The position numbers and the translations under genes are program-made. A model generated the notes under the pieces. That model saw only the letters and a program-made list of their open reading frames with translations. It ran no database searches and was not told the origin of the DNA. Source: Pirellulaceae bacterium (GTDB lineage Bacteria > Planctomycetota > Planctomycetia > Pirellulales > Pirellulaceae). From it: 34,798 bases of DNA. This document shows positions 5,503-30,147 of the stretch, piece by piece. Numbering within the stretch: the first letter of the stretch is position 1; the number at the start of each line of letters is the position of its first letter. The DNA is taken from NCBI GenBank assembly GCA_031426475.1, contig JANPLJ010000133.1:1-34798 (forward strand). The letters are read 5' to 3'.

Positions 5503-5507
5503 CGTGA

Positions 5508-7131: not shown

Positions 7132-8175
7132 ATGCGCGAAATTTTTGCGAGCAAAAGGATACGTGTGAAGGCCATGAATAAGGGTGCTAAGAAACGTCGG
7201 AAGTCGGCTGGCAGTGGCTCGCTAAAAAGCAGGCACGACAACAGCACGCTTGCTGCAGCCGAAGAACTCGACGAATACAGCAAATCAAAACATTGGGCTC
7301 CCCTGTGCGTCGCTACGGTTGTTTTGATCGCGGCGTTCTTGTTTTGTTATTGGCCGACGCTTGCGTGGATGGAATTCCAATGGCGGACTGAGCCAGACTA
7401 TTCACATGGTTATTTGATCATTCCGTTGGCCTTGGTGCTGTTGTATTCGCGTTGGGATACATTCCCGGGATTGAGTCGTAGACTCAGTTGGGCCGGGTTG
7501 GGGTTAATATTGTTTGCCGGATTTCTTCGGGTATTTGCAAGTTTCAGTTACATGGACTTTTTGGATGGCTGGTCGGTCGTGCCTTGGGTGGCGGGCGCGG
7601 TGTGGCTATTGGCTGGTCGATCGGCAATGGTCTGGGCGTTGCCTGCGATCGTTTTCCTCATCTTGCTGGTTCCGCTGCCGTTTCAATTGGAGTCGATGCT
7701 GAGCGGGAGCCTACAAAGCAATGTGACTGTCATCAGCACAGGGGTTCTACGCATCCTTGGGTTCCCAGCGATTGCGGAAGGAAACACGATTTGGGTCGGT
7801 GAGAAACAAATGCTTGTCGAGGAAGCTTGTTCTGGCCTTCGAATCTTTGTCGGTATGGCCGCATTTGCTTTTTTCTGGGCTTCGATGGCACAGCGTGCCT
7901 GGATCGATAAGGTTGTCATTTTGTTTTCGGCGTTACCTATGGCCATTGTTGCGAACACGATCCGGGTTGTTCTGACCTGCTGCTCGTTTTACTGGTTCAG
8001 CGACACGTGGGCTCGCAGGCTGCACGATGGCGCGGGAATTCTTATGATATTTATTGCGGGCGGGCTGCTTTGGGCGGTAAAATCGTACTGGGAACTCCTC
8101 TACCGACCAGCAAAGACGGTGTCGCCGGTATCGCTCGTTCGAGATGAGCTTGCTTCCATGTCCGCCGAAAATTGA
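7132..8175 (+). CDS. Exosortase (EpsH/Xrt family transpeptidase-like integral membrane protein)
   Basis: The entry motif is YWPTLAWMEFQWRTEPDYSHGYLIIPLALVLLY, followed by multiple TM helices. The catalytic-type residues are Cys233 in VEEACSGLR (TGT at 7828-7830), Arg277 in ANTIRVV and His297 in RLHDGAG. A basic N-terminal extension of about 55 aa is present, and an alternative start MNKGAK lies at 7174. Confidence 0.9.
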   Translation: MREIFASKRIRVKAMNKGAKKRRKSAGSGSLKSRHDNSTLAAAEELDEYSKSKHWAPLCVATVVLIAAFLFCYWPTLAWMEFQWRTEPDYSHGYLIIPLALVLLYSRWDTFPGLSRRLSWAGLGLILFAGFLRVFASFSYMDFLDGWSVVPWVAGAVWLLAGRSAMVWALPAIVFLILLVPLPFQLESMLSGSLQSNVTVISTGVLRILGFPAIAEGNTIWVGEKQMLVEEACSGLRIFVGMAAFAFFWASMAQRAWIDKVVILFSALPMAIVANTIRVVLTCCSFYWFSDTWARRLHDGAGILMIFIAGGLLWAVKSYWELLYRPAKTVSPVSLVRDELASMSAEN

Positions 8176-8319
8176 GAACTCACACGTTATTCGAGGTCTA
8201 ATAGTCTCAGTATATTTTAGAATCACTTTTTTTTAAGAACCAATAATCATTACCAAGGATGGTGTACGAAGAACCAAGGTTTTATTGGCTTACGAAATTT
8301 ATTTCAGAGTCGGTACATC

Positions 8320-10485
8320 ATGACTAGAATATCGCACGCATCGTCCCCCCAAACTTCGTCGTCTCCTTCATCCGAACACATCTTCGATCCATGGCTGGCG
8401 TGGGTTGCGTTCAGGCAGAGTTGGTATTGGGCCATGCCACTCGGAGCGATACTCGCGAGCCTCGGCGCATTCTACGTTCACAGCTCGTTCGTTCCGGAGT
8501 ATCGCGCAACGCATATCCTTGAGGCCAATCGCGAGTACGTTGTCTTCCAGGGAATCTTGCAAGCACCTGTCGATTTGGTTCAGAACGAGCGCCCGCTGAT
8601 TTACAATCAGCTTGTGCTTGGCCCGGTTCTTTCGGACGCCAAAATCTGCGAGGCTCCCAGTCTTTCTGACCCAGTGACGCGTGAAGCGAACTTGAGGAGG
8701 AATATGTCCGTCAACGATGCTGGAACGAGAACGTTGATGCAGATTTCATACAAGGATACAGATCCGGTCGCCGCAGCGAAGGTCTGCAATGCGATTGTAC
8801 GATCGTATTTGGACCAACGACAGAGATTTGACGATCGACGCGTCTCGGATCTTGAAGGGTGGTTGCAGCCAGCCCTCGGCAGTTGGGAAGGTGCCGTTGA
8901 AGAGAATCGCAAACGGATTATCAGCCTCAGCAAGCAAGCGAAAGGCTTTGATCCATTTCAAGAATCGAGTCGAATCAATGCGGACACCACGAATCTCAGC
9001 AGCTTGAGAGATGAGCTGAGCAACCTTCGATCGTCGGAAGCCGTTCTTGCCGCTGAGTTGGCGATGATGAAGAAAGATGAAGAAAACGCGAAACCGTTGG
9101 GACTCGAAGCAGATGCCGATCTGATAGCCGAATTGATCTCAAAGACGCCTGAAGTTGCAAAAATCGTAAGAGAGATCGAGGAAAAGCAGGCGGATATGCG
9201 CAACATGGAGCGAAAGGACATCGTCCGATTCGATCCCCGTGGGTGGCATGACAAGCTGAAGAAAGACGTTGAGGTTTTAACCAAACAACTCGCCGTCGCC
9301 CAGGAAGCTGCGAAGCCAGGGATACAAGCCAAAGTCAAAAGCCGAATGGAAAAAAACCTTTCCACACTTAAATCGTCCAGCATAGCCGCAAAAGAAAATG
9401 AGCTGGAGGGTGTTCGGACGAAGCGAAGTGTTTATGAAACCCAGTATGACGCCGAGGAAGCTCGACTGTCGAAGTTTGCTGGCGAAACGGCTGATCTTTA
9501 CTTTGCGCAACAGAAGTATCTCCAAGCCTCCAAGATCCTTGAAAAGCTTGAGGAACGAATTGCGTCGATTCGCACCGAGAGGCAAAAAAGCAGCACGATG
9601 CAGACTCTTGCGGAAGCAGTACCGCCAACCAATCCGGAAGAGATCATGCCTTGGAAAAAGGTCATCATGGTGGCCGGAGGCGCGTTCCTGATCCCCTTCG
9701 GCATCGCTTTATTGTGGGAGCTCAAGACGCAGCGGGTTACTACCGCAAACTCTTTGGAGTCGTCGAAGATGATTCCCGTTCTTGGCGAAGTTGCAAGAGT
9801 ACCGAGCGGCATCAAGATCGGGAGGAAACAGCGAGTTTACGAAGAGAGTATCGAGACATTGCGCGCCAACATGATGTTCTCGACGGGCGCTAAACAATTG
9901 CGATCGATTGTCGTCGCGAGCAGTATGTCGGGGGAAGGAAAAAGTAGCCTGGCTTCACATCTCGCATTGTCGCTCACTCGAGCGACAGACCAATCGGTTC
10001 TTTTGATCGACGCCGACTTGAGAAGTCCCGACCAGCACCACTTGTTCGGCATCGAGATGGGACATGGTCTTTCGAGTGTCTTGGCTGGGAAGTGCAGTTT
10101 GAAGGATGCGATCGATCGATCGCTGGGCAACCATCTGCATATTCTCCCGGCTGGACAACTGGAATCTAATCCGCATCGATTGGTATCTCCCGAAGCCGTT
10201 CGGAATCTTATCGAACAAGCGATGGAGCTATACGAATATGTGATCATCGATACAGCCCCTGTGCTCGCTGCGGGCGAAACACTTTGTCTAGCAGCAGCAG
10301 CCGACGCGACACTGGTCTGTGTGATGCGTGATGTAAGCCGTCACGACAATATCAAGCGATGCATGCATCGACTGGAAGCGGCTGGAGCCAAGGTCATCGG
10401 AACGATCTTTAGTGGCGTCTCGACGTTTGAGTACTCGTACCGATACGGTGACTATCGATATACATTGCCGACGATGAAATCGTAA
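8320..10485 (+). CDS. Fused polysaccharide co-polymerase (Wzz-type chain-length determinant) and BY-type protein tyrosine kinase
   Basis: The 721-aa protein has TM1 (WYWAMPLGAILASLGAFYV), a long periplasmic coiled-coil region and TM2 (VIMVAGGAFLIPFGIALLWEL). The kinase domain has Walker A SSMSGEGKSS, Walker A' VLLIDADLRSP and Walker B YVIIDTAPVLA. The C-terminal Tyr cluster is FEYSYRYGDYRY. Confidence 0.9.
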   Translation: MTRISHASSPQTSSSPSSEHIFDPWLAWVAFRQSWYWAMPLGAILASLGAFYVHSSFVPEYRATHILEANREYVVFQGILQAPVDLVQNERPLIYNQLVLGPVLSDAKICEAPSLSDPVTREANLRRNMSVNDAGTRTLMQISYKDTDPVAAAKVCNAIVRSYLDQRQRFDDRRVSDLEGWLQPALGSWEGAVEENRKRIISLSKQAKGFDPFQESSRINADTTNLSSLRDELSNLRSSEAVLAAELAMMKKDEENAKPLGLEADADLIAELISKTPEVAKIVREIEEKQADMRNMERKDIVRFDPRGWHDKLKKDVEVLTKQLAVAQEAAKPGIQAKVKSRMEKNLSTLKSSSIAAKENELEGVRTKRSVYETQYDAEEARLSKFAGETADLYFAQQKYLQASKILEKLEERIASIRTERQKSSTMQTLAEAVPPTNPEEIMPWKKVIMVAGGAFLIPFGIALLWELKTQRVTTANSLESSKMIPVLGEVARVPSGIKIGRKQRVYEESIETLRANMMFSTGAKQLRSIVVASSMSGEGKSSLASHLALSLTRATDQSVLLIDADLRSPDQHHLFGIEMGHGLSSVLAGKCSLKDAIDRSLGNHLHILPAGQLESNPHRLVSPEAVRNLIEQAMELYEYVIIDTAPVLAAGETLCLAAAADATLVCVMRDVSRHDNIKRCMHRLEAAGAKVIGTIFSGVSTFEYSYRYGDYRYTLPTMKS

Positions 10486-10557
10486 CTTGTTATTCGGTTC
10501 CATCGAACGTTCGACGATGTCCCGACGCTCCTTGTCTTCCCAATATCCCATGAATCC

Positions 10558-13500
10558 ATGATGCCGCAAAACGATAGCTTAGAAGAAGAAAAACAAGAAC
10601 CGACTGCAGTCGATGGCGTAGAGCCCCCTGCGGCGGAAGGCGTTCGCTTGGACACGAGTTCTTCACCATCGAGTTCATCGAAGGCGAGCAATCCTGCTTC
10701 TCGAAAGCATCGAGCCCGACCCTTGAAATGGGAATGGAATCTGCCGTTATTGGGAGCAACGGTGGGAGCGGCAATTATTCTCCCGGTCTTCTTCTATTTT
10801 GCCTACTATTATCAAACGTCTCGTGTCGTCGATGGAATTTGGAGTCGAGCGAATGCGGCTAAGGAAGAGGGGGATTTTCAGTCTGAATCGCGTTGGCTGA
10901 ACCTGTTGGTTACTTTTAATAAAGAGGACAAGGAAGCCTTAGTGCGACTTGCTTTGGCGATGAATGGTTCCGCCAAATCGGGTCCGCAGATCATGGAAGC
11001 CCAGCGGGCGTTGACGAATGCGTTGGGAGCGTTGGGGGAATCCGACAGCGTCGAAACGATTCGCGAACTTCGGTGTTTGCTGATACAGCGTTTACTCGAT
11101 CTTGGCAACAGCTGGGCAGGCGAATCGGAACGGCAGACAATTCTATTGAAGGCCGAGCCAGAGAATCCAGATGCTTTGCAATGGCTCGCATTGAGTCTTT
11201 ACTCTCAAGTCGAATCGGGGGAATGGAGGTCAAGGAACAAGGTCCGCTATGAAAGAAGCAAAGACTTTTGGGCCTGGGCTTCGTACCAGCCCGTTGGCGA
11301 AATCCTTCGATTGGCGCTCGACAAGAATCCGGAATCAGAGGATCTCGCCATCGCTCTGTTGCATGCGTACGTTGTCAAGAAGAACTATTTTGACTTACCG
11401 GATAACGATGACAACCGAGCGAAGTTCGACGAAAAAGCGAGATCATTAATCCAGCAGCTTCAAGGCAAAGACGATGGAAGATCTCAGTGTGCAAGCTATA
11501 TGTATGCTCAGAGTATTGACCGCGAATTGGCCAGACGTTTGCTGCCAGATATAGCTCCGATGGCCATGGAACGACTGCGTTCTCTTCCGCCGTCCAAGAA
11601 TTCGAATTCGGACACTGCGAGCATCGTGGTTCCGTCGAATGACACCGGAAAAAAAGAAGGTGATTGGGATGCTCAACTGGTAGCTTCTTATGGGGCACAG
11701 CTCAGCGATCAAGGTGAGGCGGAAAAGGCGTATCGGCAATTTGACGATCTAATTTCGATCGAAAACGGCTTGATTCCGAATTCGCTGCTGGAGTCGATCT
11801 ATGTTGGTGCAGGACAAGCTTTGTGGAGTCAAGGAAAAGCAGACGAAGCACATCGCGTATGGCGGCAAGGCTGCGAGAGAATTGGGCCATTAGATGGACT
11901 CGCGCTTTGGCATACGATTGCGTATCATGCATGTGAATCGGGTAGAGTTCAAGAAGGTGTCGCCGCGTTGGACGAGCTCAGCGCTGCCATCAAGCAAGCA
12001 TCCGCGTCACTTCTCAATCTATCGCTTGTTCGAGCCGATGCTCGCTCGTCAAAACAATTGAGGATCGATGCGGTTAAATGGTATAACGATGTCTTGCACG
12101 CTGGGCTAGAGTTGCGAGAAGGTCGGGCGAGCACGGCGGTGCAAAACCTCACGACCGCTCTCTCGGCAAAAATTTCAATTATTCCCGCTCATCGGGCCTA
12201 TGCTTCGAAATTGCTTGCTCGAGCACATGCTGAAATGGGAGTTTGGGATCTTTCAGCGCGGGCCTTAGAAGAGGCGATCGCGCTCGAACCAGAAAACAAA
12301 CTCTTGCGACGCCAAGCCGCCGATGCTTGGAGTCGTGCCGGGGGTGCTTCACGATCCATCGAGCAGCTGAAACTATCTGATGATGGGAGTTTCGACTTGG
12401 CTTTGACTGTGCTCCAGTCCACACTTTCGAATCAAAAAGCCTTACCTCCATCGCAACGCGATAACACGAAGATACGGCAATCGATCGAAGAAACGTCAAC
12501 TCGACTCAAGAAAGAAAAGCAGAAAGGGGCGTTTCCACCCCGCGAGTGGTTATTTGACGCGATTCGACTTTCATCCGATAACGGGATGAACATGTCCTCA
12601 TCGGTTATCTCAGCCTCCGAACGCGAAGCGAAATTCATCGAACTCTTCAAGCGTTACCCAAGCGTTCCCGAACTCCAGTCATTGGCGGCGATCTCGCTTC
12701 GCGGTCTTGGAAAGCAAGAAGATGCGGCGCTAGCGTTGAGTAATTTGGAAAAGCTAAAGGAATCTCATTTTCAAATTTGGCTTGAGACGCAAGTCAAGCT
12801 AGCGCTCTCCGATAACGATGTAGCCAAAGCCAGGCGATTGGTCGACGAAGCGATCGCTTCCAAGAAAATCCCCGACGACGCCATCTTAGATATCACCTCA
12901 AGAATCTTCGAGTCTGCAGGATTGTTAGCGGATGCATGTGAGTTCTTGAAGCGAAAGGCTGACGCAAAGTCTGAATCGAATCTGTTCAGAATTGGTTCGA
13001 TGCTGCTCGACCTGGAACAACAATTCGCTTCTGGAAAGTCTTCGGATTCGTCTGGGCAAGCCAACGGGAATCCGTCGCAAGAACTGGATGATGTGATTCA
13101 AAGACTTTCTGATGTTGAGGGCGAACGCGGATCTCATTGGCGGCTTTTGAAATCAGGGCGCTTGCTTCGAAGCTACAAGATTTCAAAAAATGAAAAGGAA
13201 CTTCAGTCGAGCGCCAAGCTCCAAGCGGAAATCCTGGCCGTTCGTCCGCGGTGGGCACCGGCCCTGGCATTGGGAGGGGAAATTGCCTCCGCTCAAGGAA
13301 AACCGGAGAAAGCCGTGGAGTCTCTTCAAAAGGCGATCTCCGAAGGCGACCTGCGCGTGTCGACCGTCTATGAATTAGTGCGACAATTGAATGGTCTTGG
13401 GCGATTCACGGAAGCGGAGTTCGAGTTTGAGAGAATTGCCGAGTTTTCAGGTAAAGTCGGAATGGTTTCGGAGCTCGAGATTGGAATTGCACAAGGCAAG

Positions 13501-15372
13501 GGTCAATTCGAACGAGCATTGGAGTTGGCCCGTCAGGGTATCGAACGCAGAAAAAATGATGCATCGGCGTGGCTATTTTTGGCTCAAGCAGCGCTTCTCA
13601 ACATCGCCAAGTCTCCCGAACTGACCCAAGCATTGGTTGCCGAAGCCGACCACGCTTTAGATGAGGCGAATCGACTTTCTGGGACCGGAGATGTCAACGT
13701 ATGGCTTTACAGGTTTCGATTCGCATCGCAATTTCAAGGAATTGAAAAAGTACGTCGCATTGCGGAAGAGTTAGCAAAAAGCTCTGTCCCCGAAAGACGA
13801 CGCGCCCTTTTAAGCGTTCGCGCCTATCTTCAACTGCGAGAATTCGAAACAGCCAAGACGCTGCTCGACAAGGCCCTCGCGGAGTCGCCACGCGACATAG
13901 AAGTCAAGATCGCGTTGGTGGAGTATTACCGCCTTACTGGTGACCAGAAGGCGCTTGTGGATACGCTAGAAGAATTGGTGCGGCTTGATCCAAAGCGCGA
14001 AGACACTCGAAAAGCTCTAGCGGTGGCGCTGGTGACGAATAGCCAAGCGTCTGGGGCGCTTCCTTGGGAACGCATCGCGACATTGATCGGGGATAGCGCC
14101 GTTGGGAACTCCGAATCGGCACGGCTTTACTATGCGATGCTGCTTGCAACCCGGGGCGAGGAAACTCAGCTGAAAACATGTAAGCAGCTATTGAGAGAGC
14201 TGGTTAAGTCTCAATCACTCGAGATTGCAAATGAAGCGATCAGGTTGAGTATTGCGATCGAGCAAAAACGGTGGATGCAGTCGAATGTCCAGGTCGATAC
14301 AGCTGCCTCGGCGGATAGCTTTCTCGAAATTCGAAGACTCTATGATGTGCTTACAAAGCGCAAAGAACCCTCGGTTCCCGATCTGTTTCAGTATGCCGAC
14401 TTCCTCTTACGAGCTTCGAAAACGGACGACGTGCCATGGTTGATCGATAGAATACAAGCTCTGACCCCCGATAGTCCGCAGGTTCTTGTACTGCGACTTC
14501 GGCTTGCAAGAGAGAAAAAACTACTCGACCGGATACCCGGCCTGGTGGAGAGTTGGATTCAAAGTGGAGCCAAATCAACGATATCAAGGGCTTCGGTTGC
14601 GGGCGGAATTTTGATGCAACTAGGATTTGAAGAGCTCGGCGTAACGTTCCTGCAACGAGCTTATTCCGAGAACCCGAAAGAGTTTCGTCCTTTTGTTGTC
14701 AGCCTGAGTCGAACCGGAAAAATGAAGGAAGCAATCGAGGTCTGTATTGCGCAGTCGCAGTCAGATTCGGAATCCGCGCCAGATGCAATCGCGCTTTTGG
14801 CGGACGTGGCTTTCCAGGACGCTGGGCTCAAGACATTGGCCGATCGCATTGAAAACGTTTTCTCGGAGGGATTGAAAGATCTTCCATCGAATCCAGTCGT
14901 CCTAGAATCGATCGGGACACTACGACTGAATCAACAACGTTATCCAGAGGCGCTCGAACTCTTGCTGCGTGCAGAGGCGATTGCTCCGAACAACTTGATG
15001 ACTCTCAACAATCTCGCAGTCGCAACATCGGAGATCTCTGGCAGAGAAACAGAGGGATTGCCTCGGATCACTCGGGCCATCGAACTCTTTGGTCGGTACC
15101 CAGAACTTCTTGACACGCTTGGCGTCGTGCAGTTTCGTTGTGGGATGCTCAAGGAAGCCCAAGCAAGCTTGCAGGAGGCAGTAAGTCGTGGAAAGGATCC
15201 CCGTTTCCGGTTGCATCTAATTCAAGTGCTGGGTGCAAGGAAAAACGAAACGGAAATCAACAAGATCGCGAAGGACCTGAATATTGCCGAGCTTCGCAAA
15301 ATGCCTTTGACGGCGAGCGAACGTTTGGTGGTAGAAGAGGTCTCAAAGAAAATTGGAAACGAAAGCAGCTAA
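10558..15372 (+). CDS. Giant (1604 aa) single-pass membrane-anchored TPR-repeat protein, possibly a distant analogue of the PEP-CTERM-system TPR protein PrsT
   Basis: The N-terminal tail is acidic and Ser-rich. A basic patch (RKHRARPLKW) precedes one TM helix (LPLLGATVGAAIILPVFFYFAYYY). About 1500 aa of uninterrupted Ala/Leu-rich helical repeats follow, with TPR-like signatures such as PENPDALQWLALSLY, AIALEPENKLLRRQAADAW and AEAIAPNNLMTLNNLAV. The stop lies 9 nt before the epsI start. Confidence 0.8.
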   Translation: MMPQNDSLEEEKQEPTAVDGVEPPAAEGVRLDTSSSPSSSSKASNPASRKHRARPLKWEWNLPLLGATVGAAIILPVFFYFAYYYQTSRVVDGIWSRANAAKEEGDFQSESRWLNLLVTFNKEDKEALVRLALAMNGSAKSGPQIMEAQRALTNALGALGESDSVETIRELRCLLIQRLLDLGNSWAGESERQTILLKAEPENPDALQWLALSLYSQVESGEWRSRNKVRYERSKDFWAWASYQPVGEILRLALDKNPESEDLAIALLHAYVVKKNYFDLPDNDDNRAKFDEKARSLIQQLQGKDDGRSQCASYMYAQSIDRELARRLLPDIAPMAMERLRSLPPSKNSNSDTASIVVPSNDTGKKEGDWDAQLVASYGAQLSDQGEAEKAYRQFDDLISIENGLIPNSLLESIYVGAGQALWSQGKADEAHRVWRQGCERIGPLDGLALWHTIAYHACESGRVQEGVAALDELSAAIKQASASLLNLSLVRADARSSKQLRIDAVKWYNDVLHAGLELREGRASTAVQNLTTALSAKISIIPAHRAYASKLLARAHAEMGVWDLSARALEEAIALEPENKLLRRQAADAWSRAGGASRSIEQLKLSDDGSFDLALTVLQSTLSNQKALPPSQRDNTKIRQSIEETSTRLKKEKQKGAFPPREWLFDAIRLSSDNGMNMSSSVISASEREAKFIELFKRYPSVPELQSLAAISLRGLGKQEDAALALSNLEKLKESHFQIWLETQVKLALSDNDVAKARRLVDEAIASKKIPDDAILDITSRIFESAGLLADACEFLKRKADAKSESNLFRIGSMLLDLEQQFASGKSSDSSGQANGNPSQELDDVIQRLSDVEGERGSHWRLLKSGRLLRSYKISKNEKELQSSAKLQAEILAVRPRWAPALALGGEIASAQGKPEKAVESLQKAISEGDLRVSTVYELVRQLNGLGRFTEAEFEFERIAEFSGKVGMVSELEIGIAQGKGQFERALELARQGIERRKNDASAWLFLAQAALLNIAKSPELTQALVAEADHALDEANRLSGTGDVNVWLYRFRFASQFQGIEKVRRIAEELAKSSVPERRRALLSVRAYLQLREFETAKTLLDKALAESPRDIEVKIALVEYYRLTGDQKALVDTLEELVRLDPKREDTRKALAVALVTNSQASGALPWERIATLIGDSAVGNSESARLYYAMLLATRGEETQLKTCKQLLRELVKSQSLEIANEAIRLSIAIEQKRWMQSNVQVDTAASADSFLEIRRLYDVLTKRKEPSVPDLFQYADFLLRASKTDDVPWLIDRIQALTPDSPQVLVLRLRLAREKKLLDRIPGLVESWIQSGAKSTISRASVAGGILMQLGFEELGVTFLQRAYSENPKEFRPFVVSLSRTGKMKEAIEVCIAQSQSDSESAPDAIALLADVAFQDAGLKTLADRIENVFSEGLKDLPSNPVVLESIGTLRLNQQRYPEALELLLRAEAIAPNNLMTLNNLAVATSEISGRETEGLPRITRAIELFGRYPELLDTLGVVQFRCGMLKEAQASLQEAVSRGKDPRFRLHLIQVLGARKNETEINKIAKDLNIAELRKMPLTASERLVVEEVSKKIGNESS

Positions 15373-15381
15373 GAATCCACC

Positions 15382-16020
15382 ATGACTCGGACAAAATTTA
15401 TTGCCGGATTACTCAGTATTTTGGTGATTACTGCGATCACCACGATGATGCGTAATTATTTGGAAGCGGGCTGGTCGAATCATTCGACGCTCGAAACACA
15501 CGCCGAGAATCTCCGTCAGCTTCCAGAGCAGATCGGTGACTGGGTAGCCTCGTCGGCAAACGATTTACCTGACAACGCCAAGCGCATCTTGAAATGTCAC
15601 GGATTTATTAATCGATCCTATTGGAATCCCCAAACAGGTGGCACGGTCACCGTTGCGATTCTGTTCGGGCCCCGTGGGCCAATTGCGGTTCATACGCCTG
15701 AAATCTGCTACAGTGGCGTCGGTACCCAACCAATTGCCGACAGACGGTCGGTCGAAATCAAAACGGAAGAAAAATCGGATCGCTTTTGGACGATTCAGTT
15801 TTCGCGTGGGGCGGATTCGGCGCCGAGCCTAGAAGTTTGGTATGCTTGGAGTGATGGAGGTCCGTGGGTGGCTTCTGAACAACCTCGTTTTTGGCTTACC
15901 GATAGTTTGTACAAGATTCAACTTGCAGGTACTCCCGCCAAGACCAATGCGGAAAGTGACTGCAAGAGCTTTTTGCGAGCTCTTATGCCGGTTTTACGGC
16001 AAAGGCTTCGCAGTTCCTAG
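15382..16020 (+). CDS. epsI: EpsI-family exosortase-associated protein
   Basis: The 212-aa protein has an N-terminal TM/signal anchor (FIAGLLSILVITAITTMM). The hallmark motif VHTPEICYSGVG matches the H-x-PE-x-C-x-x-G-x-G pattern of EpsI proteins. It sits in the same locus as the exosortase. Confidence 0.85.
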   Translation: MTRTKFIAGLLSILVITAITTMMRNYLEAGWSNHSTLETHAENLRQLPEQIGDWVASSANDLPDNAKRILKCHGFINRSYWNPQTGGTVTVAILFGPRGPIAVHTPEICYSGVGTQPIADRRSVEIKTEEKSDRFWTIQFSRGADSAPSLEVWYAWSDGGPWVASEQPRFWLTDSLYKIQLAGTPAKTNAESDCKSFLRALMPVLRQRLRSS

Positions 16021-16087
16021 TCCATATAGTTAACCCTTTGTATCGCAATTTAGTTTGTCCCTCTAGCTTGATCACAGGTTTCACGCA

Positions 16088-17878
16088 ATGGAAATGGCTT
16101 CCGGAACACAGTTCCCGGTCCTGACAACAGAAAAGGAAGATGATCTAAAGATCACCTATCCTTTTCCGGTGGAAGACTGGACTGACCTGCGCAATGGGTA
16201 TAGCGCAGCAACAAGACGATGGCTTTACTTTCAGCGGAAATACTTCTGGGAGCGAATACTAGGTTGCATTTTACTGATCCCAGCGAGTCCTCTCGTACTA
16301 TTTCTGTGTGCCTTGGTAAGAATGCATTCCAAGGGCAATGCGTTGTACAAGCAAACACGAGTTGGGCATCGCGGAAAAACGTTTGAGATTCTGAAAATCC
16401 GAACGATGCATTGTGATGCTGAAGCCGACGGTGAAGCTAGATGGTGTACCAAGAACGACCCTCGTATTACTACTCTCGGCAAGATAATTCGGAAGTTGCA
16501 CTTGGATGAACTGCCTCAGTTGATCAATGTTGTGCGAGGCGAAATGACACTGGTCGGTCCACGTCCCGAGCGTCCGGTATTCGTTGATAAACTGAAGTTG
16601 TTGATTGCTGGTTACGACAGGAGGCATTCGGTGCTTCCCGGCATTACAGGCTTGGCTCAGATCAACCTGCCCCCAGATACATCGACGGCGGATGTGCGAC
16701 GAAAGCTATTCCTAGACCTTCGATATATCGACGAGGCCTGTTTTTGGCTCGATTTCCGAATGATCATGGCCTCCAGTGTTCGATTGCTTGGTGTTCCAGG
16801 CGCAATCGTTACACAGCTTCTAGGTTTGTTTCGTTCAGTGCCCGTATTTAAGGACCTGGATGTTTTAGACGACCTGCATGAGGCAGTTGCTCATACCGAC
16901 CAACAGGTACGGCGTGCGACCAAGAATCGCTCCCAGATTTCGGTGCGACCCTTCGTATTCCCGACGGGCGACCGGATTGATTCGCTTGAATCGAAATCGA
17001 CGCGACTTTCTGAAACGGTCCCGAACGCTCTTACCGTCGATGTGGAAGATTACTTTCAGGTTTCAGCGTTTGAGCATCAAGTAAAACGTGAAAAGTGGGA
17101 AGGTTTTGAAAGCCGTGTCGAAGCGAACACGGACAGACTTTTGAAACTCTTTCGCGAGAAGGAAGTGCACGGCACGTTTTTTGTGTTGGGATGGATCGCG
17201 GAAAAGTTTCCCGCATTGATCCAACGCATCGCGGATGCTGGCCACGAGATAGGATGCCATAGCTTTGATCACAGGCTGCTTTACAATTTGTCGCCAGGCG
17301 AGTTTCGTGAGGATCTGATTCGAAGTCGTGACGCCATCAAGAACGCTTGTGGAATCGAAGTTACCAGCTATCGTGCGCCAAGCTTTTCCGTCACCTCGAA
17401 ATCCCTTTTTGCCATTGGCACTTTGGTTGACGAAGGATTTATCCTGGATTCGAGCATCTTCCCGATCATGCATGATCGCTATGGAATGCCAGACTCAGTT
17501 CCTGATGTCCACCATCTTACGGTATCTGACAGCAAAATTATCGAATTCCCACCGTCCGTCTGGCAGTCTCCGTTTGGCAAGATTCCTATCGGAGGCGGCT
17601 ACTTTAGACTCGCACCTTATTGGGTTACGCAACGAGCCATACGAGGCATTCGCGATGCTGGGCGACCAGCGATGTTTTACGTGCATCCGTGGGAGATCGA
17701 TCCCGATCAACCGACCATTGCGAATGTGGGGTGGAAGAGCCATTTTCGGCACTACGTAGGACAAAAGTCGACTCTGGAGAAACTTTCTCGCTTACTCGAC
17801 GACCATCGTTTTGCACCTGTTTCGGAAGTACTATCATACGAGGTAATGTCAAATATTGAGTTGGAAGCCAACGTATAA
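16088..17878 (+). CDS. Fusion protein: polyprenyl-phosphate sugar-phosphate transferase (bacterial sugar transferase domain) plus PEP-CTERM-locus-type polysaccharide deacetylase
   Basis: Residues about 45-240 carry a re-entrant helix (ILGCILLIPASPLVLFLCAL) and the motifs YKQTRVGHRGKTFEILKIRTM, DELPQLINVVRGEMTLVGPRPERP and LPGITGLAQIN. Residues about 315-596 carry LTVDVEDYFQVSAFEH, HGTFFVLGWIAEKFP, GHEIGCHSFDH, SYRAPSFS and FYVHPWEIDPDQP, the pattern of the exosortase-locus deacetylase subfamily plus its C-terminal extension. It is one continuous ORF. Confidence 0.85.
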   Translation: MEMASGTQFPVLTTEKEDDLKITYPFPVEDWTDLRNGYSAATRRWLYFQRKYFWERILGCILLIPASPLVLFLCALVRMHSKGNALYKQTRVGHRGKTFEILKIRTMHCDAEADGEARWCTKNDPRITTLGKIIRKLHLDELPQLINVVRGEMTLVGPRPERPVFVDKLKLLIAGYDRRHSVLPGITGLAQINLPPDTSTADVRRKLFLDLRYIDEACFWLDFRMIMASSVRLLGVPGAIVTQLLGLFRSVPVFKDLDVLDDLHEAVAHTDQQVRRATKNRSQISVRPFVFPTGDRIDSLESKSTRLSETVPNALTVDVEDYFQVSAFEHQVKREKWEGFESRVEANTDRLLKLFREKEVHGTFFVLGWIAEKFPALIQRIADAGHEIGCHSFDHRLLYNLSPGEFREDLIRSRDAIKNACGIEVTSYRAPSFSVTSKSLFAIGTLVDEGFILDSSIFPIMHDRYGMPDSVPDVHHLTVSDSKIIEFPPSVWQSPFGKIPIGGGYFRLAPYWVTQRAIRGIRDAGRPAMFYVHPWEIDPDQPTIANVGWKSHFRHYVGQKSTLEKLSRLLDDHRFAPVSEVLSYEVMSNIELEANV

Positions 17879-17941
17879 ACTTAAGTAAGCAAGCAACTAC
17901 CTTCGTAAGAATTGCATCGAGTCTAGAAAGAACTTCCTCGC

Positions 17942-19231
17942 ATGACAACCATCCAGGCGATTCCTACATTCGACATCGGTGATGACGGGCAAGAAAAACC
18001 TCAGCTGCTAATGCTTACGCACCGCGTGCCTTTTCCTCCAGACAGGGGAGATAGGATTCGGTCATGGAACATCTTGCGTCACCTTTCTCGAAATGCCGAT
18101 GTCTCATTGGCGTGTGTTTCCAGTGAACCGATCCATCCCCAAGCAAAAGATGCCTTCAAAGAAGTCTGCCGACGCGTGGTTATCGCTGAAGTCGGCAATC
18201 GATCGCGATGGGTTCGAGCGTGCGCTTCGATGGCTTTCGGAAGATCCTTGACGGAAGGACTTTTTTGGTCTCCTTCACTTGCCTCCACCCTCGATCATTG
18301 GGCCGACGTGCTCCCGTTCGATGCTGCGTTGGTCTATTGCAGCAGCATGATGCAGTACGCTTGCCAAAAATCGCTCGCCAAGGTCCCACGGGTTGTCGAT
18401 TTGGTAGATGTTGACAGTCAGAAGTGGCAAGACTACGCCAATCGATCGCCTTTATGGAAACGACTTGTGTACCAATTGGAATCTCGGCGCGTTCGACGAC
18501 TGGAGCAGGAAATATCTAGGTCGGCGAATGCGGTAACGCTGGCAAGCGATGCTGAAGCGATGCTGTTTCGAGATTCGGTCTCGGGGAACGAGGCTGTTGT
18601 GCTTGGTATTAGCAACGGCGTCGATATCGACTTTTTTGATCCGTCGACAATTGAACGAGTACTCATCCCCAATCGACCCAAGACATCGTCGGGCGTTTCC
18701 AGATTTCGAATGGTTTTCGTTGGCGTTCTAGACTATTTGCCGAACGTGGATGGATTAAAGTGGTTTATCAATCAGGTTTGGGCAAAGCTAAAGGAATTGA
18801 TACCAGCGGCAACGCTCGAAATCGTCGGGCGCAATCCTAGTTCTGCCTTGAAGAAGCTATTGGAGCGAGAAGGGATCCGCGTCGTCGGTTCGGTAGACGA
18901 TGTCCGTCCCTATCTGGCAGGTGCGGATCTTGTGATTGCGCCGCTCTTGATTGCGAGGGGGATTCAGAATAAGGTTCTTGAAGCGATGGCCATGGGAAAG
19001 CCCGTCTTGGCGACGTCCTATGCTGCCGAGGGGATTGATGCCGAGCGAGACAAACACTTCGTGGTTGCGGATTCTGCGGCAGAATGGATTCAAGCCCTTG
19101 TGCGGCTTTTTAACAGGCCTGAGTTACAGGATCGTATTGGTGCAGCAGCGAGAAAGCTTATTCTGGAAGAATATACTTGGCCATCTCGTCTCGATCGACT
19201 GAACGTGCTATTAGGGATTGCAAACACTTAA
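17942..19231 (+). CDS. Glycosyltransferase (GT-B/GT4-like), PEP-CTERM/EpsH1-system-associated sugar transferase type
   Basis: The N-terminal box LLMLTHRVPFPPDRGDRIRSWNILRHLS matches the characteristic H-R-x-P-[FY]-P-P-x-x-G-D-[KR]-I-R motif of that family. The C-terminal GT1 region includes IAPLLIARGIQNKVLEAMAMGKPVLAT. Confidence 0.8.
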   Translation: MTTIQAIPTFDIGDDGQEKPQLLMLTHRVPFPPDRGDRIRSWNILRHLSRNADVSLACVSSEPIHPQAKDAFKEVCRRVVIAEVGNRSRWVRACASMAFGRSLTEGLFWSPSLASTLDHWADVLPFDAALVYCSSMMQYACQKSLAKVPRVVDLVDVDSQKWQDYANRSPLWKRLVYQLESRRVRRLEQEISRSANAVTLASDAEAMLFRDSVSGNEAVVLGISNGVDIDFFDPSTIERVLIPNRPKTSSGVSRFRMVFVGVLDYLPNVDGLKWFINQVWAKLKELIPAATLEIVGRNPSSALKKLLEREGIRVVGSVDDVRPYLAGADLVIAPLLIARGIQNKVLEAMAMGKPVLATSYAAEGIDAERDKHFVVADSAAEWIQALVRLFNRPELQDRIGAAARKLILEEYTWPSRLDRLNVLLGIANT

Positions 19232-19299
19232 AATCTCAACGACTCAAGCATCTGTGATATATTGCGATCGCGATGGATGCACCGTGATACTGGAAGCTT

Positions 19300-20439
19300 A
19301 TGACAGACAATCGAGTGCGAGTTGGCTTCGTCGTACATCAGATGCAGATTGCGGGCGCCGAAATTCTGATCTCGCAAATCATCGTTCGTTTGAAAGATGA
19401 AATTGCTCCGACGATTTTTTGTTTAGATGCAATCGGCGAACTCGGCTCAAAATTGGCAGAACAAGGAGTTCCGGTGGTTGTCCTGGATCGAAAGCCCGGT
19501 ATCGATCAGGGTCTTCCTTTTCGTCTTGCCAAGGAGATCAAGTCGCGGAGCATCGAGGTGGTGCATGCGCACCAATACACTCCGTTCTTCTATACGGCCC
19601 TCGCTCGGTTGACGGGATGTTGGGCGACCAAAATTGTTTTTACGGAACATGGTAGACATTTTCCCGATATCGTCTCCTGGAAACGACGGTTGGCGAATCG
19701 GTTCATCCTCTCTCAGTTTTCCAACGTGACAACGGCTTGTTGCGATTTTTCGACCGTGGCCTTGAAGCAGAAAGAAGGATTCTCACGAGCTTTCACTATC
19801 CCGAACGGCGTTGCGGTAGAAGATCTTCCTCCTCGCGGTACTCCGGATCAGCAGCGGGAACTACGAACGAAGCTGGGGCTTTGCAATGATCTTCAGTACG
19901 TCGCTTGTGTGGCTCGATTTCACCCGATCAAAGATCATGCGATGTTGCTGCGGGCTTGGGCCATTGTGCAGATGAAGGTTCCCAATGCGCGCTTGATTCT
20001 GGTAGGCGACGGATCCGAACGAGCTGCAATGGAGGAATTGTCACGTACATTGCGACTAGAGACGAGCGTTCAATTCTGGGGGATTCGGCACGACATTGGC
20101 GACATTCTTCGGGCCGTCGACCTTTTTGCTCTTTCCAGTATCAGTGAAGCGTCATCGCTTACCCTATTGGAAGCAATGGCTTGCGAATGTCCCGTCGTGG
20201 CCACCGATGTTGGGGGAAATAGCGAGCATTTTACCCACGGTGTGGAAGGCTATCTTGTTCCCAGAGGAGGCAGTCGAGAAATGGGGGAGAAACTGACGAA
20301 GTTGCTTCGGAACGACGAGGCGAGAGAGCAAATGGGCAGCTTCGCAAGGCGCCGCGTAGTTGATAAATTCGACTTGAAGGTGTCCGTAGCGCGCTATCAT
20401 GAAATCTACACTCAGTGGAGTAAGGACCGAGGAGTATGA
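19300..20439 (+). CDS. Glycosyltransferase family 4 (GT-B fold)
   Basis: The 379-aa protein has the C-terminal GT1 motif SISEASSLTLLEAMACECPVVATDVGGNSEHFTHGVEGYLVP. The N-terminal layout (VVLDRKPGID...VVHAHQY...FTEHGRH) recalls the second exosortase-locus transferase family, but I cannot verify that. Confidence 0.8.
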   Translation: MTDNRVRVGFVVHQMQIAGAEILISQIIVRLKDEIAPTIFCLDAIGELGSKLAEQGVPVVVLDRKPGIDQGLPFRLAKEIKSRSIEVVHAHQYTPFFYTALARLTGCWATKIVFTEHGRHFPDIVSWKRRLANRFILSQFSNVTTACCDFSTVALKQKEGFSRAFTIPNGVAVEDLPPRGTPDQQRELRTKLGLCNDLQYVACVARFHPIKDHAMLLRAWAIVQMKVPNARLILVGDGSERAAMEELSRTLRLETSVQFWGIRHDIGDILRAVDLFALSSISEASSLTLLEAMACECPVVATDVGGNSEHFTHGVEGYLVPRGGSREMGEKLTKLLRNDEAREQMGSFARRRVVDKFDLKVSVARYHEIYTQWSKDRGV

Positions 20440-21023
20440 GTTGGTTGACGAAAACGATTGCGAAATCGTTGGCTTTCACGCTGATACTGCCGTTGTGGAT
20501 ATCATTTCAAGTAGCTGCGTTGGTGAAATCGGCGGATGATTCGTTGGTGGGCCATTCTCAGCTACTGGCCCTGATACCAGGTCGTTTCGGATCGTATCTG
20601 CGTGTTGCGTTTTACCAGCTGGTCCTGGAATCATGCGACTCGACGGCCTGTATTGAGTTCGGATCGCTTTTTTCCAAAACGGGGGCGAAAATAGGGAAGC
20701 GAGCCTACATCGGTCCTTATTGCCAGATCGGTTTGGCAACGATCGAAGACGACGTCCTAATCGGTTCGTCTGTCCAAATCCCAAGCGGACCACGCACGCA
20801 CGGTTTTGAACGACTCGATTGCCTGATTCGCGAGCAACCCGGCATTCCCCAGCGCGTAACCATTGGAAAAGACAGTTGGATCGGGGTGGGATGTATTATC
20901 CTTGCGGACGTCGAGGCTCAGTCCGTAGTCGGTGCCGGTAGCGTAGTGACCAAATGTCACCCGACTCGGTCGGTTATCGCAGGAAACCCTGCCAAATTGC
21001 TGCGATCTAGGGATGTAGAGTAG
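20436..21023 (+). CDS. Left-handed beta-helix (hexapeptide-repeat) acyl/acetyltransferase with an N-terminal membrane helix
   Basis: Hexapeptide-type repeats are present: IGKRAYIGPYCQIGLATIEDDVLIGSSVQI and IGKDSWIGVGCIILADVEAQSVVGAGSVV, ending in IAGNPAKLL. The N-terminal hydrophobic segment is LAFTLILPLWISFQVAAL. An ATGA overlap links it to the upstream GT. Confidence 0.8.
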   Translation: MSWLTKTIAKSLAFTLILPLWISFQVAALVKSADDSLVGHSQLLALIPGRFGSYLRVAFYQLVLESCDSTACIEFGSLFSKTGAKIGKRAYIGPYCQIGLATIEDDVLIGSSVQIPSGPRTHGFERLDCLIREQPGIPQRVTIGKDSWIGVGCIILADVEAQSVVGAGSVVTKCHPTRSVIAGNPAKLLRSRDVE

Positions 21024-22058: not shown

Positions 22059-22931
22059 ATGTCAGTCGAACCGCTGTCAATCATGCATCAAGAAGAGGAG
22101 CCCTGGGACTTGGTCATTCGACCACATGCATCCATCTTCTCGCTCAACCTTGCGGATATTTGGCGACACAGGGACCTGCTTTATCTTTTTACTCGGCGCG
22201 ATATCGTTGCATTCTATAAACAGACACTTCTCGGGCCATTGTGGTTCTTCATTCAACCGATTTTCACAACGCTAGTCTATGTCCTTATCTTTGGACAGAT
22301 TGCAAAGCTCTCAACGGACGGAGCTCCGCAAATTCTGTTCTACCTTTGTGGCATAACATTTTGGAACTATTTTTCTGAATGTTTCAACAAGACCGCTACG
22401 GTCTTTAGGGATAATGCCGCGCTGTTTGGCAAAGTCTATTTCCCTCGAATCATTGCACCGCTTTCGATCGTCTTGTCGAACTTGACTCGCTTTGCAATAC
22501 AGTTCTCTCTATTCTTGTTATGCCTTGGTTGGTATTTCTGGAACGGCGAAGTGCAGCCGAATGTAACTGCATTTATGTTGCCACTGATTCTGTTGATCAT
22601 GATTGCGATTGGACTCGCATGCGGAATGTTTTTCTCGGCCGTGACTACCAAGTACCGAGATATGGTTCACTTGTTGCAATTCGGCGTCCAGCTGCTCATG
22701 TACGCAACGCCGATAATTTATCCGTCTTCTCAGATGCCGACCAAAGTTGCTGCGGTTTTGTCATGGAACCCGTTAGCCCCACTTTTTGAAGCGGCACGTT
22801 TCGGATTTCTAGGTAAAGGCGAGTTTTCTCTGGTTGGAATCGCATATTCCGCCGTTTTTGCTTGCGTGTCACTTTTCGTTGCAACCGTAATCTTCAATCG
22901 AGTTGAACGAACGTTTATGGATACGGTATAA
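22059..22931 (+). CDS. wzm: ABC-2 type polysaccharide export permease (Wzm/TagG/KpsM family)
   Basis: The family entry motif is LLYLFTRRDIVAFYKQTLLGPLWFFIQPIFTTLVYVLIFG. About six TM segments are present, and the gene lies directly upstream of the Wzt-type ATPase. Confidence 0.85.
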   Translation: MSVEPLSIMHQEEEPWDLVIRPHASIFSLNLADIWRHRDLLYLFTRRDIVAFYKQTLLGPLWFFIQPIFTTLVYVLIFGQIAKLSTDGAPQILFYLCGITFWNYFSECFNKTATVFRDNAALFGKVYFPRIIAPLSIVLSNLTRFAIQFSLFLLCLGWYFWNGEVQPNVTAFMLPLILLIMIAIGLACGMFFSAVTTKYRDMVHLLQFGVQLLMYATPIIYPSSQMPTKVAAVLSWNPLAPLFEAARFGFLGKGEFSLVGIAYSAVFACVSLFVATVIFNRVERTFMDTV

Positions 22932-24231: not shown

Positions 24232-25093
24232 GGCCCCCACGAGTAAAATTTCGGGTGGGCCAGTGGTACCTGTTTTTCGCGCGAATGTGCTCGGGAAACA
24301 CAACGTTCAGTACTACCGGTGCACGGATACTGGATTCATCCAAACAGAAACACCTTATTGGCTCGAAGAAGCCTATTCGTCTGCCATTTCCGCGCTGGAT
24401 GTTGGGTATGTTAGTCGCAATTTTTGGATGTCGACATGCACGGAGAAAATTATCGAGCGTTGCTTTGCGAAAGAGGGACACTTCCTTGACTACGGCGGGG
24501 GCTATGGAATGTTTGTCCGATTGATGCGCGACAAGGGGCTTGACTTTGTTCGATACGACCCTCACTGCCAAAACCTCTTCGCGATATACTTTGATGCTCC
24601 GGAACAGGCTCTCAATACACTGTCGTTCGAATTGGTCACGGCCTTCGAAGTTTTCGAGCATCTGCCGGAGCCTCTCGTTGAACTGGAGCGGATGTTTCGT
24701 GCTTCCAATTCAATTTTGTTTTCGACAGAATTGCAGCCAGACGAGCCTTTGAATTCGGTGAATGACTGGTGGTATTTTGTACCTGAAGCGGGTCAACATG
24801 TTTCATTTTATACTCTAGAAGCACTTCATCGAATGGCATCGTCGTTTGATGCAAAGCTTTACAGCAATGGCAAAAACCTGCATCTGATGACGAAACGTTG
24901 CGACGTCAAAGACCCATTTGCTCCAGAATTCGCTCCAGCGTCTGCGCCAACACTCTTCGAGAAAGCTGCCGATAGATGGTTGCGTCCATCCAAGAATCAA
25001 AAGCCTCTACAACCGGCCGCGGCAACGAATACGAGCTTGCTGGATTCAGACTTTCAACAGGTACTCGCCAAGATTCGGACATCACAAGAATGA
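24218..25093 (+). CDS. Class I SAM-dependent methyltransferase
   Basis: The SAM motif I is FLDYGGGYGMFVRLM, followed by DFVRYDP and LVTAFEVFEHLPEP. The listed ORF starts at 24113, inside wzt. The ATG at 24218 (MTGIEAP) overlaps the wzt stop by 14 nt and is the more plausible start. Confidence 0.75.
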   Translation: MTGIEAPTSKISGGPVVPVFRANVLGKHNVQYYRCTDTGFIQTETPYWLEEAYSSAISALDVGYVSRNFWMSTCTEKIIERCFAKEGHFLDYGGGYGMFVRLMRDKGLDFVRYDPHCQNLFAIYFDAPEQALNTLSFELVTAFEVFEHLPEPLVELERMFRASNSILFSTELQPDEPLNSVNDWWYFVPEAGQHVSFYTLEALHRMASSFDAKLYSNGKNLHLMTKRCDVKDPFAPEFAPASAPTLFEKAADRWLRPSKNQKPLQPAAATNTSLLDSDFQQVLAKIRTSQE

Positions 25094-27903: not shown

Positions 27904-27927
27904 GAAGCAGTAGATGTTACGACGCGC

Positions 27928-30140: not shown

Positions 30141-30147
30141 CTCACGC

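Follow-up and report, generated by a model that had tools for sequence, protein, structure and literature searches.

Genes of the exosortase locus

We analysed a window of 34,798 bases, the whole of contig JANPLJ010000133.1 from a Pirellulaceae bacterium (GCA_031426475.1), in which an exosortase gene opens an unbroken plus-strand run of intact, tightly spaced open reading frames (ORFs) from 7132 onward; the run becomes a glycan cluster that is cut by the contig end. Twenty-eight window ORFs were judged to be genes and scanned with the hidden Markov models (HMMs) of Pfam and NCBIfam, with model scores given in bits. The run begins with the following genes, whose lengths are in amino acids (aa):

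7132..8175, + strand: exosortase, 347 aa; about eight transmembrane (TM) helices, catalytic C233/R278/H298
8320..10485, + strand: Wzc-like polysaccharide co-polymerase (PCP) and bacterial tyrosine (BY) autokinase, 721 aa; TIGR01007 124.6, cutoff 108
10558..15372, + strand: giant TPR protein, 1604 aa; multiple TPR Pfam matches, N-terminal membrane anchor at residues 60-83
15382..16020, + strand: EpsI (DUF3485), 212 aa; PF11984 47.2, cutoff 26.1; N-terminal signal or anchor
16088..17878, + strand: PglC-type phosphoglycosyl transferase (PGT), NodB-type deacetylase and DUF3473 in one protein of 596 aa; PF02397, TIGR03006, PF11959
17942..19231, + strand: TIGR03087-family PEP-CTERM/XrtA-system glycosyltransferase (GT); TIGR03087 425.7, cutoff 316.65

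An original prediction, made from the letters alone, had listed these six genes on the plus strand in this order and with these sizes, and the HMM scans back each assignment. Every peptide motif that it quoted was located in the window proteins; of its residue numbers, Cys233 was correct, while Arg277 and His297 were each off by one (R278 and H298). Two further genes within its range of 7132-21023, for an stp2-like GT4 glycosyltransferase and a hexapeptide acetyltransferase, had gone unlisted, and the module end that it set at 21023 is artificial: the same-strand cluster goes on for ~14 kb to the contig end, and this continuation is conserved in relatives.

A six-function core conserved across Pirellulales

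Upstream of the TIGR03087-family gene, the window holds a fixed core of six functions: the exosortase, the Wzc-like PCP/BY-kinase, the giant anchored TPR protein, EpsI, the PglC-type priming transferase and the TIGR03006 deacetylase. A protein search with the exosortase returned 1,587 relatives at E ≤ 1e-10, of which all the informatively named ones were planctomycetes, with named species in the Pirellulales genera Aureliella, Rosistilla, Novipirellula, Stieleria and Candidatus Laterigemmans. Scanning one genome per species gave 130 genomes with the exosortase family, and 80 loci (numbered with L below) were returned for comparison; at least 130 species-representative genomes thus encode the family, and virtually all of these are Pirellulales. 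The 80 loci belonged to Planctomycetota and mostly bore the labels of Pirellulales taxa (among them Pirellula, Rubripirellula, Rhodopirellula, Novipirellula, Stieleria, Aureliella, Roseimaritima, Blastopirellula and Thermoguttaceae), the sole exception being a 2.5-kb contig binned as Flavobacterium and probably mis-binned. The predicted planctomycete host is therefore borne out, and the distribution of protein relatives narrows it to the order Pirellulales.

Gene order is conserved as well. When all window proteins were aligned to the related loci with tblastn, the one-strand order was kept in essentially every locus of sufficient length, with the PCP/BY-kinase ~1.1 kb, the TPR protein ~3.4 kb, EpsI ~8.2 kb and the PGT and deacetylase ~9 to 10 kb downstream of the exosortase. 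The complete genome of Aureliella helgolandensis (CP036298.1) encodes an exosortase of 358 aa, a PCP-kinase of 714 aa, a TPR protein of 1636 aa, an EpsI of 217 aa and a PGT-deacetylase of 621 aa. Annotation-free, all-against-all clustering of ORFs recovered exactly the six core functions as widely shared, in 30-82 loci each. The architecture that had been described as rearranged and partly missing is accordingly no peculiarity of the window; it is the norm across at least 130 Pirellulales species genomes.

Beyond the core and shadow ORFs, clustering yielded two more families. One is a FeeM-type N-acyl amino acid synthase located 2-7 kb upstream of the exosortase in 13 loci (for example, L033:3381-4229; PF21926, 143 bits), with no counterpart in the window. 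The other, found in 16 loci, is a divergently oriented 381-aa protein lying ~1.6 kb upstream of the exosortase (L052:8341-9483, minus strand); it matches no Pfam family and is likewise missing from the window.

We also observed paralogous 'mini' loci (L003:302-2316, L004:8736-10984 and L082:8769-10984) in genomes that carry a full locus as well. In these, a PEP-CTERM-like gene stands directly upstream of the exosortase, which is followed by a shorter TPR gene; EpsI was detected only in L003, and the PCP/BY-kinase is absent. Because the mini loci nest within the window clade of a neighbour-joining tree, recent duplication is suggested.

The exosortase falls outside named subfamilies

General models recognize the window exosortase (PF09721, 173 against a cutoff of 25.7; TIGR02602, 123.8 against 105.55; TIGR04178 signature, 54.2 against 23), and its multiple hydrophobic segments are those of a polytopic membrane protein. 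We aligned a panel of 32 family members (42-89% identity), across which the catalytic triad of C233, R278 and H298 is invariant. Judging from homologue coverage, the true start is probably the second ATG, ~14 codons in. Searching PDB with the exosortase profile gave no meaningful solved relative.

Subfamily models gave a different picture from the general ones. The window protein scored 128.5 bits with the XrtA model (TIGR03109), below the cutoff of 208, and failed with similar scores on XrtW (129.4 versus 425), XrtD (119.4 versus 400) and XrtV (116.8 versus 313); scores for the remaining Xrt, cyanoexosortase and archaeosortase models were much lower. Among the 32 members, the best XrtA E-value was 1.2e-48, which corresponds to ~166 bits by extrapolation from the window score (cutoff 208), and the best XrtD E-value was 1.2e-52 (cutoff 400 bits). 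None of the 32 reached the cutoff of XrtB, C, D, N, O, T, V, W or Y or of the cyanoexosortases. RefSeq names the family proteins only 'exosortase/archaeosortase family protein'. Judged by model scores, then, the exosortase belongs to no named subfamily, in line with the prediction that the locus was not a canonical XrtA one.

Co-polymerase, TPR protein and EpsI

The 721-aa protein combines an N-terminal two-TM periplasmic domain with Walker A, A' and B motifs and a tyrosine-rich C-terminal tail (YSYRYGDYRY). It fell far under the cutoffs of the Wzc equivalog models and missed the XrtA-specific models TIGR03007 (55.6, cutoff 278.85) and TIGR03018 (112.3, cutoff 230.65). PCP and BY-kinase form one ORF in 55 of 60 informative related loci. 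The single chain had been correctly predicted; its status as a distinctive feature does not hold, since the fusion is family-wide and has the ordinary Wzc-type layout.

The calls of a TPR protein and EpsI were upheld by Pfam. Against the XrtA-system PrsT model (TIGR02917) the TPR protein scored 85.7 bits, below the cutoff of 312.2, so that by this measure it is PrsT-like and not PrsT; a homologue occupies the equivalent position in 58 related loci. It also matched the C-terminal part of a PA2778-type C39 peptidase model with 34 bits (cutoff 150), which we judged to be a TPR-like match and rejected. In EpsI, the motif H104-x-P106-x-x-C109 is invariant in 49 sequences, and the window protein lies far under the cutoffs of the NCBIfam EpsI type B and type V models.

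A priming transferase paired with a deacetylase

The 596-aa protein matched PF02397 (179.5 bits), TIGR03006 (329.9, cutoff 276.2) and PF11959 (139.3 bits); with the full-length XrtA-system transferase model TIGR03013, its PGT domain scored 201.9, below 393.35. The PGT DE and PRP residues and the NodB DxxD and histidine residues are invariant in 34 members. In searches against solved structures, the PGT half aligned over its full length to PglC (closest relatives 8g1n and 8e37, E = 3e-40), and CE4 enzymes were matched by the deacetylase half. The protein has a single hydrophobic helix at 53-80, like monotopic PglC, and lacks a signal peptide; both domains should therefore face the cytoplasm.

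A single ORF encodes both functions in 8 related loci; in at least 21 others, PGT and deacetylase are neighbouring ORFs that lie in different frames. When the exosortases were placed in a neighbour-joining tree, loci with the fusion grouped in the region around the window and Aureliella, and the Rubripirellula/Rhodopirellula and deep Thermoguttaceae-like branches had separate PGT and deacetylase genes. From this placement, adjacency looks ancestral and fusion derived. The three-domain architecture (PGT, deacetylase and DUF3473) was present in nearly all of the first ~100 protein clusters at 90% identity among the matches listed, which included RefSeq entries named 'XrtA system polysaccharide deacetylase'. 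A longer variant, in which a large PGT containing CoA_binding_3 is fused to a TIGR03006-type deacetylase (769 aa in L165; L165:6799-12310), adjoins a sigma-54 activator, an ExeA-like AAA ATPase and a stand-alone BY-kinase. Because the L165 fusion sits among canonical XrtA-type partners, such fusions are not restricted to the Pirellulales locus type. The predicted fusion is thus present, but it does not define the locus: it marks one sublineage of 8 loci and recurs in an L165-type context.

Canonical partners and candidate substrates

As predicted, none of the canonical XrtA partners, namely an outer-membrane polysaccharide exporter (OPX), an ExeA-like ATPase, FemAB-like and AsnB-like enzymes and PrsK/PrsR, was found among the 28 scanned window ORFs. 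In L001/L083, L002 and L084, the stretch that starts 10 kb before the exosortase and ends 10 kb past the fusion likewise lacks OPX, PrsK/R and ATPase genes, and ORF clustering of the related loci showed neither OPX nor ATPase genes as a conserved family at up to 10 kb from the exosortase. No FemAB-like gene was found in the window or in those loci of relatives that were examined. Of the OPX, ATPase, FemAB-like and AsnB-like partners, A. helgolandensis has only an AsnB-like gene, and L001, L083 and L084 have none. The sigma-54 activator signature GAFTGA occurred in 1 of 82 related loci. A sigma-54 promoter scan gave matches at chance level, none of them in the intergenic region 6650-7132; sigma-70 promoter and terminator scans of the window likewise gave counts at chance level, and an Rfam scan of the window gave no matches.

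Because AsnB-like, Wzx and Wzy/ligase-like genes sit in the A. helgolandensis version, the partner set is better described as lineage-variable than as simply lost. Of the earlier description as a 'streamlined' variant, the absence of PrsK/R, OPX and the ATPase from the loci examined stands; simple reduction does not, as the cluster continues with Wzm/Wzt and many glycan genes.

Candidate substrates were found in the related loci. In 14 of these loci, a total of 16 ORFs carry at their C-terminal end a VPEP-type motif, then a hydrophobic stretch and then basic residues, compared with 1.35 expected from random internal windows. Two of the 16 pass TIGR02595 (21.2 and 24.1, cutoff 16), and one lies near the PF07589 cutoff. 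For Rhodopirellula baltica, a published table lists 12 PEP-CTERM proteins and a single EpsH, and TIGRFAM models detected no EpsI, PrsK, PrsR or PrsT there (Haft 2006, PMC1569441). Based on the tails near relatives' exosortases and on this tabulation, the cognate sorting signal is most likely the classic PEP-CTERM.

A glycan cassette downstream of the core

The cluster continues as follows:

19300..20439, + strand: stp2-like GT4 glycosyltransferase; TIGR03088 210, below the cutoff of 409; PF00534 123 bits; conserved in L083, L084 and L087
20436..21023, + strand: hexapeptide-repeat sugar acetyltransferase; PF00132, PF14602; conserved in L083, L084 and L087
21203..22051, + strand: class I S-adenosylmethionine (SAM) methyltransferase (Methyltransf_24/CmcI-like), from the HMM scan
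22059..22931, + strand: Wzm, ABC-2 permease of a glycan exporter; PF01061 75.1, cutoff 26.9; Wzm/KpsM NCBIfam matches under cutoff
22903..24231, + strand: Wzt, ATP-binding cassette (ABC) ATPase with C-terminal carbohydrate-binding Wzt_C; PF00005 76.7, cutoff 25; PF14524 34.5, cutoff 30.4
24113..25093, + strand: SAM methyltransferase (Methyltransf_23), candidate chain-terminating capping enzyme; PF13489 76 bits
25128-26210, + strand: DegT/LegC/PseC-type sugar aminotransferase; TIGR04181 384, below the cutoff of 420
26232-26702, + strand: GNAT acetyltransferase; PF00583 50 bits
26689-27903, + strand: GT4 glycosyltransferase, from the HMM scan
27928-28920, + strand: GT2 glycosyltransferase, from the HMM scan
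28917-30140, + strand: GT4 glycosyltransferase, from the HMM scan
30148-31299, + strand: GT4 glycosyltransferase, from the HMM scan
31312-32256, + strand: GT2 glycosyltransferase, from the HMM scan
32253-33560, + strand: flavin adenine dinucleotide (FAD)/amine-oxidase-type oxidoreductase, from the HMM scan
33524-34558, + strand: GT2 glycosyltransferase, from the HMM scan
34555..34798, + strand: presumed RfbF-like glucose-1-phosphate cytidylyltransferase, 5' part (first 81 codons), cut by the contig end

Genes from 26689 to 34558 (three GT4, three GT2 and one oxidoreductase) are tightly packed or overlapping on one strand. A 179-bp gap separates acetyltransferase and methyltransferase (21023-21203); after it, the run goes on to the contig end with genes that overlap or stand only a little apart. 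The mechanically called Wzt start, a TTG giving a 29-nt overlap with Wzm, is probably too far upstream. The same probably holds for the GTG start of the Methyltransf_23 gene, which overlaps Wzt by 119 nt; an ATG near 24218 fits better.

Three relatives were informative for synteny: L083 and L084, found by exact look-ups, and L087, from a metagenome scan. That scan was anchored on deacetylase-domain motifs common to other TIGR03006-type deacetylases and mostly retrieved non-Pirellulales contigs. A TIGR03087-type glycosyltransferase follows the fusion in L008, L009, L012, L013, L049, L073, L078, L083, L084 and L087. The longer order of fusion, TIGR03087 GT, GT4, acetyltransferase, Wzm and Wzt with Wzt_C is found again in L084 and L087, whose fusions are 54% and 60% identical to that of the window, and in part in L083. 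Wzm after the acetyltransferase is conserved in L084 and L087, in both of which Wzt homologues 47-54% identical to that of the window stand at the equivalent place.

The A. helgolandensis cassette is different. Directly after the core, it encodes a Wzx flippase, an AsnB-type amidotransferase (TIGR03108 338.9, below 816.9) and a Wzy_C/DUF5935 ligase-like protein (TIGR03097 79, below 188). Because the cassette is of Wzx/Wzy type in Aureliella and of Wzm/Wzt type in the window sublineage, the six-function core is the constant part and the glycan-assembly route is exchangeable.

Two side observations concern this region. In L083 (GCA_036704275.1), the closest long relative, a resolvase/recombinase pair (14470-15567) lies between the TIGR03087-like GT and the stp2-like GT4, and several core genes are split, which suggests assembly errors or decay. 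The gene at the contig end of the window, which we take to be RfbF-like from the G-G-x-G-T-R nucleotidyltransferase N-terminus of its translation and not from an HMM match, hints at a cytidine diphosphate (CDP)-activated sugar in the product.

Proposed function and alternative explanations

We consider it likely that the window carries the Pirellulales version of a PEP-CTERM/exosortase-linked surface-glycan system, made up of the fixed core and a lineage-specific cassette that here depends on Wzm/Wzt. The scheme that we propose starts from the gene identities, their conservation and the topology cues given above, and adds to them a presumed order of steps, substrate sugars and exosortase acceptor. 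The monotopic PGT domain would transfer a sugar-1-phosphate, probably N-acetylhexosamine or one like diacetylbacillosamine (HexNAc or diNAcBac-like), onto undecaprenyl phosphate at the cytoplasmic face, and the fused cytoplasmic deacetylase would de-N-acetylate the lipid-linked sugar or the nascent chain. The GT4 and GT2 enzymes and the acetyltransferase would extend and decorate the chain, which a methyltransferase may cap; the C-terminal binding domain of Wzt would recognize the cap, and Wzm/Wzt would flip the finished polymer. The BY-kinase/co-polymerase and the periplasmic TPR protein may organize or regulate assembly. In the periplasm, the exosortase and EpsI would remove the PEP-CTERM tail from secreted proteins whose genes lie elsewhere in the genome and then pass the cleaved proteins to a surface or glycan-associated acceptor.

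Several points weigh against this proposal. No PEP-CTERM gene was found in the window, that is, on the whole contig, and Wzx, Wzy, a WaaL-type ligase and OPX are also absent from it. PCP-2a/BY-kinase proteins normally partner Wzx/Wzy pathways and not ABC-transporter pathways, so the core and the Wzm/Wzt halves may serve different polymers. A. helgolandensis has no Wzm/Wzt at the place where the window has them, and in the window the 179-bp gap precedes this part of the cluster. Every functional step is assigned by homology.

The strongest alternative, which we rate as possible though clearly less probable, is that two unrelated neighbours adjoin here: an exosortase/exopolysaccharide module at 7132-21023, with its Wzx/Wzy elsewhere, and an O-antigen-type ABC cluster for a lipopolysaccharide-bound glycan from 21203 to the contig end. 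The gap, the usual pathway of Wzc-like kinases and the Wzx and Wzy_C-like genes of A. helgolandensis all fit such a division, as does the combination of Wzm, Wzt with Wzt_C and methyltransferases, a classic O-polysaccharide layout (PMC9445017). What speaks for a single cluster is that the junction of acetyltransferase, Wzm and Wzt after exosortase-linked genes recurs on the same strand in L084 and L087 despite a Wzt identity of only 47-54%, that the gap has no terminator-like site (terminator counts being at chance level) and that the fused PGT is the only PGT in the window to prime the downstream glycan. Less probable still, and in our view unlikely, is a planctomycete orthologue of canonical XrtA whose HMM scores are low from phylogenetic distance only and whose regulators and exporter lie elsewhere in the genome. 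XrtA is indeed the top or near-top subfamily match, the equivalog cutoffs of TIGR03006 and TIGR03087 are passed, canonical VPEP-type tails occur beside relatives' exosortases and the fusion protein bears the RefSeq 'XrtA system' label. However, all 32 exosortases remain under the XrtA cutoff, XrtD and XrtW score equally well or better, and none of EpsI, the TPR protein, the PCP and the kinase reaches its XrtA-system cutoff; the single GAFTGA activator in 82 loci, the lack of a sigma-54 promoter match upstream and the lack of a conserved OPX/ATPase cluster within 10 kb of the exosortase argue in the same direction. A decaying remnant whose exosortase system no longer functions would account for the absence of a PEP-CTERM gene and canonical partners from the window, but it is highly implausible given intact, tightly spaced ORFs, conserved catalytic motifs and a gene set maintained across at least 130 species.

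Within the proposed system of core and Wzm/Wzt cassette, the invariable pairing of a priming transferase with a cytoplasmic deacetylase beside exosortase and EpsI led us to a more specific idea, which we offer as a long shot. The deacetylated first sugar of the lipid-linked glycan might, after export by Wzm/Wzt, present a free amine as the nucleophile that resolves the exosortase acyl-enzyme, so that PEP-CTERM proteins would end up in covalent linkage with a glycan that is first carried by undecaprenyl and later anchored at the surface. If true, this would be the Gram-negative counterpart of sortase acting on lipid II and would provide the long-sought exosortase acceptor, one that an ABC-transporter route could supply as well as a Wzx/Wzy route.

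Comparison with known systems

The locus resembles the proteobacterial XrtA system (Haft 2006, PMC1569441; TIGR03109) in its Cys-Arg-His exosortase, EpsI, large TPR protein, chain-length determinant and tyrosine kinase, in a TIGR03006 deacetylase and a TIGR03087 glycosyltransferase above cutoff, and in the VPEP-type tails near relatives' exosortases. It differs in that the window exosortase is under cutoff, EpsI has its own gene downstream of the TPR gene, a single chain carries PCP and kinase, and priming falls to a short transferase of PglC type, fused to the deacetylase or encoded beside it, where XrtA loci have the full-length TIGR03013 enzyme. The Pirellulales locus also lacks PrsK/PrsR, the sigma-54 signature, OPX, the ExeA-like ATPase and a FemAB-like protein, and the window cassette is of Wzm/Wzt type.

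XrtD (VPLPA-CTERM, TIGR04152), XrtW (NF038142) and XrtV (NF035943) score about as XrtA does on the family, far below their cutoffs. The models of XrtD and XrtW span 486-494 positions, and XrtW was matched only at its N-terminal exosortase portion (positions 3-231). Because the separate EpsI of the window matches XrtD positions 282-394, the extra C-terminal part of XrtD is EpsI-like. In the window type, EpsI is a separate gene, and the tails near relatives' exosortases look like classic VPEP.

The R. baltica EpsH, RB2461, is also a planctomycete exosortase for which PrsK, PrsR, PrsT and EpsI went undetected by TIGRFAM models, the same model failures as in the window; R. baltica was not among the 80 loci compared, and RB2461 is likened by this pattern only. 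In Stieleria maiorica Mal15, the stieleriacine (N-acyl amino acid synthase) cluster adjoins PEP-CTERM/EPS genes, a neighbourhood that PMC7293339 mentions in passing, with no dissection of the exosortase locus there; the same paper cites Craig 2011 for a link between N-acyl amino acid synthases and exosortase systems. The FeeM-type synthase upstream of the exosortase in 13 related loci is similar to this arrangement, from which the window, with no such gene, departs.

The 721-aa protein is built like Escherichia coli Wzc, with its pair of TM helices, coiled region in the periplasm, Walker motifs and tyrosine tail, and the window Wzt shares with the WzmWzt O-antigen exporter an ABC ATPase joined to Wzt_C (PMC9445017, PMC6379404). 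Wzc and WzmWzt normally belong to different assembly routes, whereas here both stand in one operon-like run, with no Wza/OPX or WaaL nearby and with equivalog models far under cutoff. Unlike the known PglC and CE4 deacetylases, the window joins both in 596 aa together with DUF3473, and no such fusion occurs among the solved relatives from the sequence search.

By model scores and gene order, the locus is a distinct, conserved exosortase-locus type that is XrtA-like and without a named subtype; in function it would work as an XrtA-type PEP-CTERM/EPS system does. The original prediction of a distinct variant that is not a canonical XrtA locus therefore stands as to type, but not as to a unique or broken locus, since the type is already in public genomes. 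A planctomycete lacking PrsK/R had already appeared in a table of 2006 (PMC1569441). Our literature search returned no publication dissecting this locus type and none linking an exosortase with Wzm/Wzt. What is new is an uncurated variant, with two leads in the constant pairing of PGT and deacetylase beside exosortase/EpsI and the interchangeable export route. It would deserve its own curated model, given that the RefSeq exosortase name is generic while the neighbouring protein is labelled an 'XrtA system' deacetylase.

Exosortases are widespread, and this locus bears on the questions of which acceptor molecule they use and what EpsI and the TPR partner do. A compact, strongly conserved, phylum-specific locus type amounts to a system stripped to six constant functions and narrows the list of essential components. 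Because Pirellulales settle on algae and particles and grow as rosettes and biofilms, the locus is a candidate for their surface and holdfast biology.

The upstream flank

Upstream of the exosortase, the window contains the following features:

554-1816, + strand: 420-aa secreted-looking protein with two CxxCH haem-binding motifs; weak MtrC/MtrF-like match of 17.5 bits, below cutoff
2709-3374, - strand: 221-aa ORF, no Pfam or NCBIfam family match
3587-6650, - strand: DevB/DevA/DevC-like tripartite ABC exporter (HlyD-type adaptor, ABC ATPase, FtsX-type permease), divergent from the exosortase

Of the DUF1559 and PSCyt genes predicted in the flank, the DUF1559/HX9DG neighbour was found as described, and the supposed 'PSCyt' gene (554-1816) has no PSCyt Pfam match. 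We considered the DevBCA-like exporter as a component of the system and rejected it, as it recurs only in L001 and, 7-9 kb off, in L065. The 221-aa ORF carries proline-rich TPVxPQ-type repeats and ends in a hydrophobic helix.

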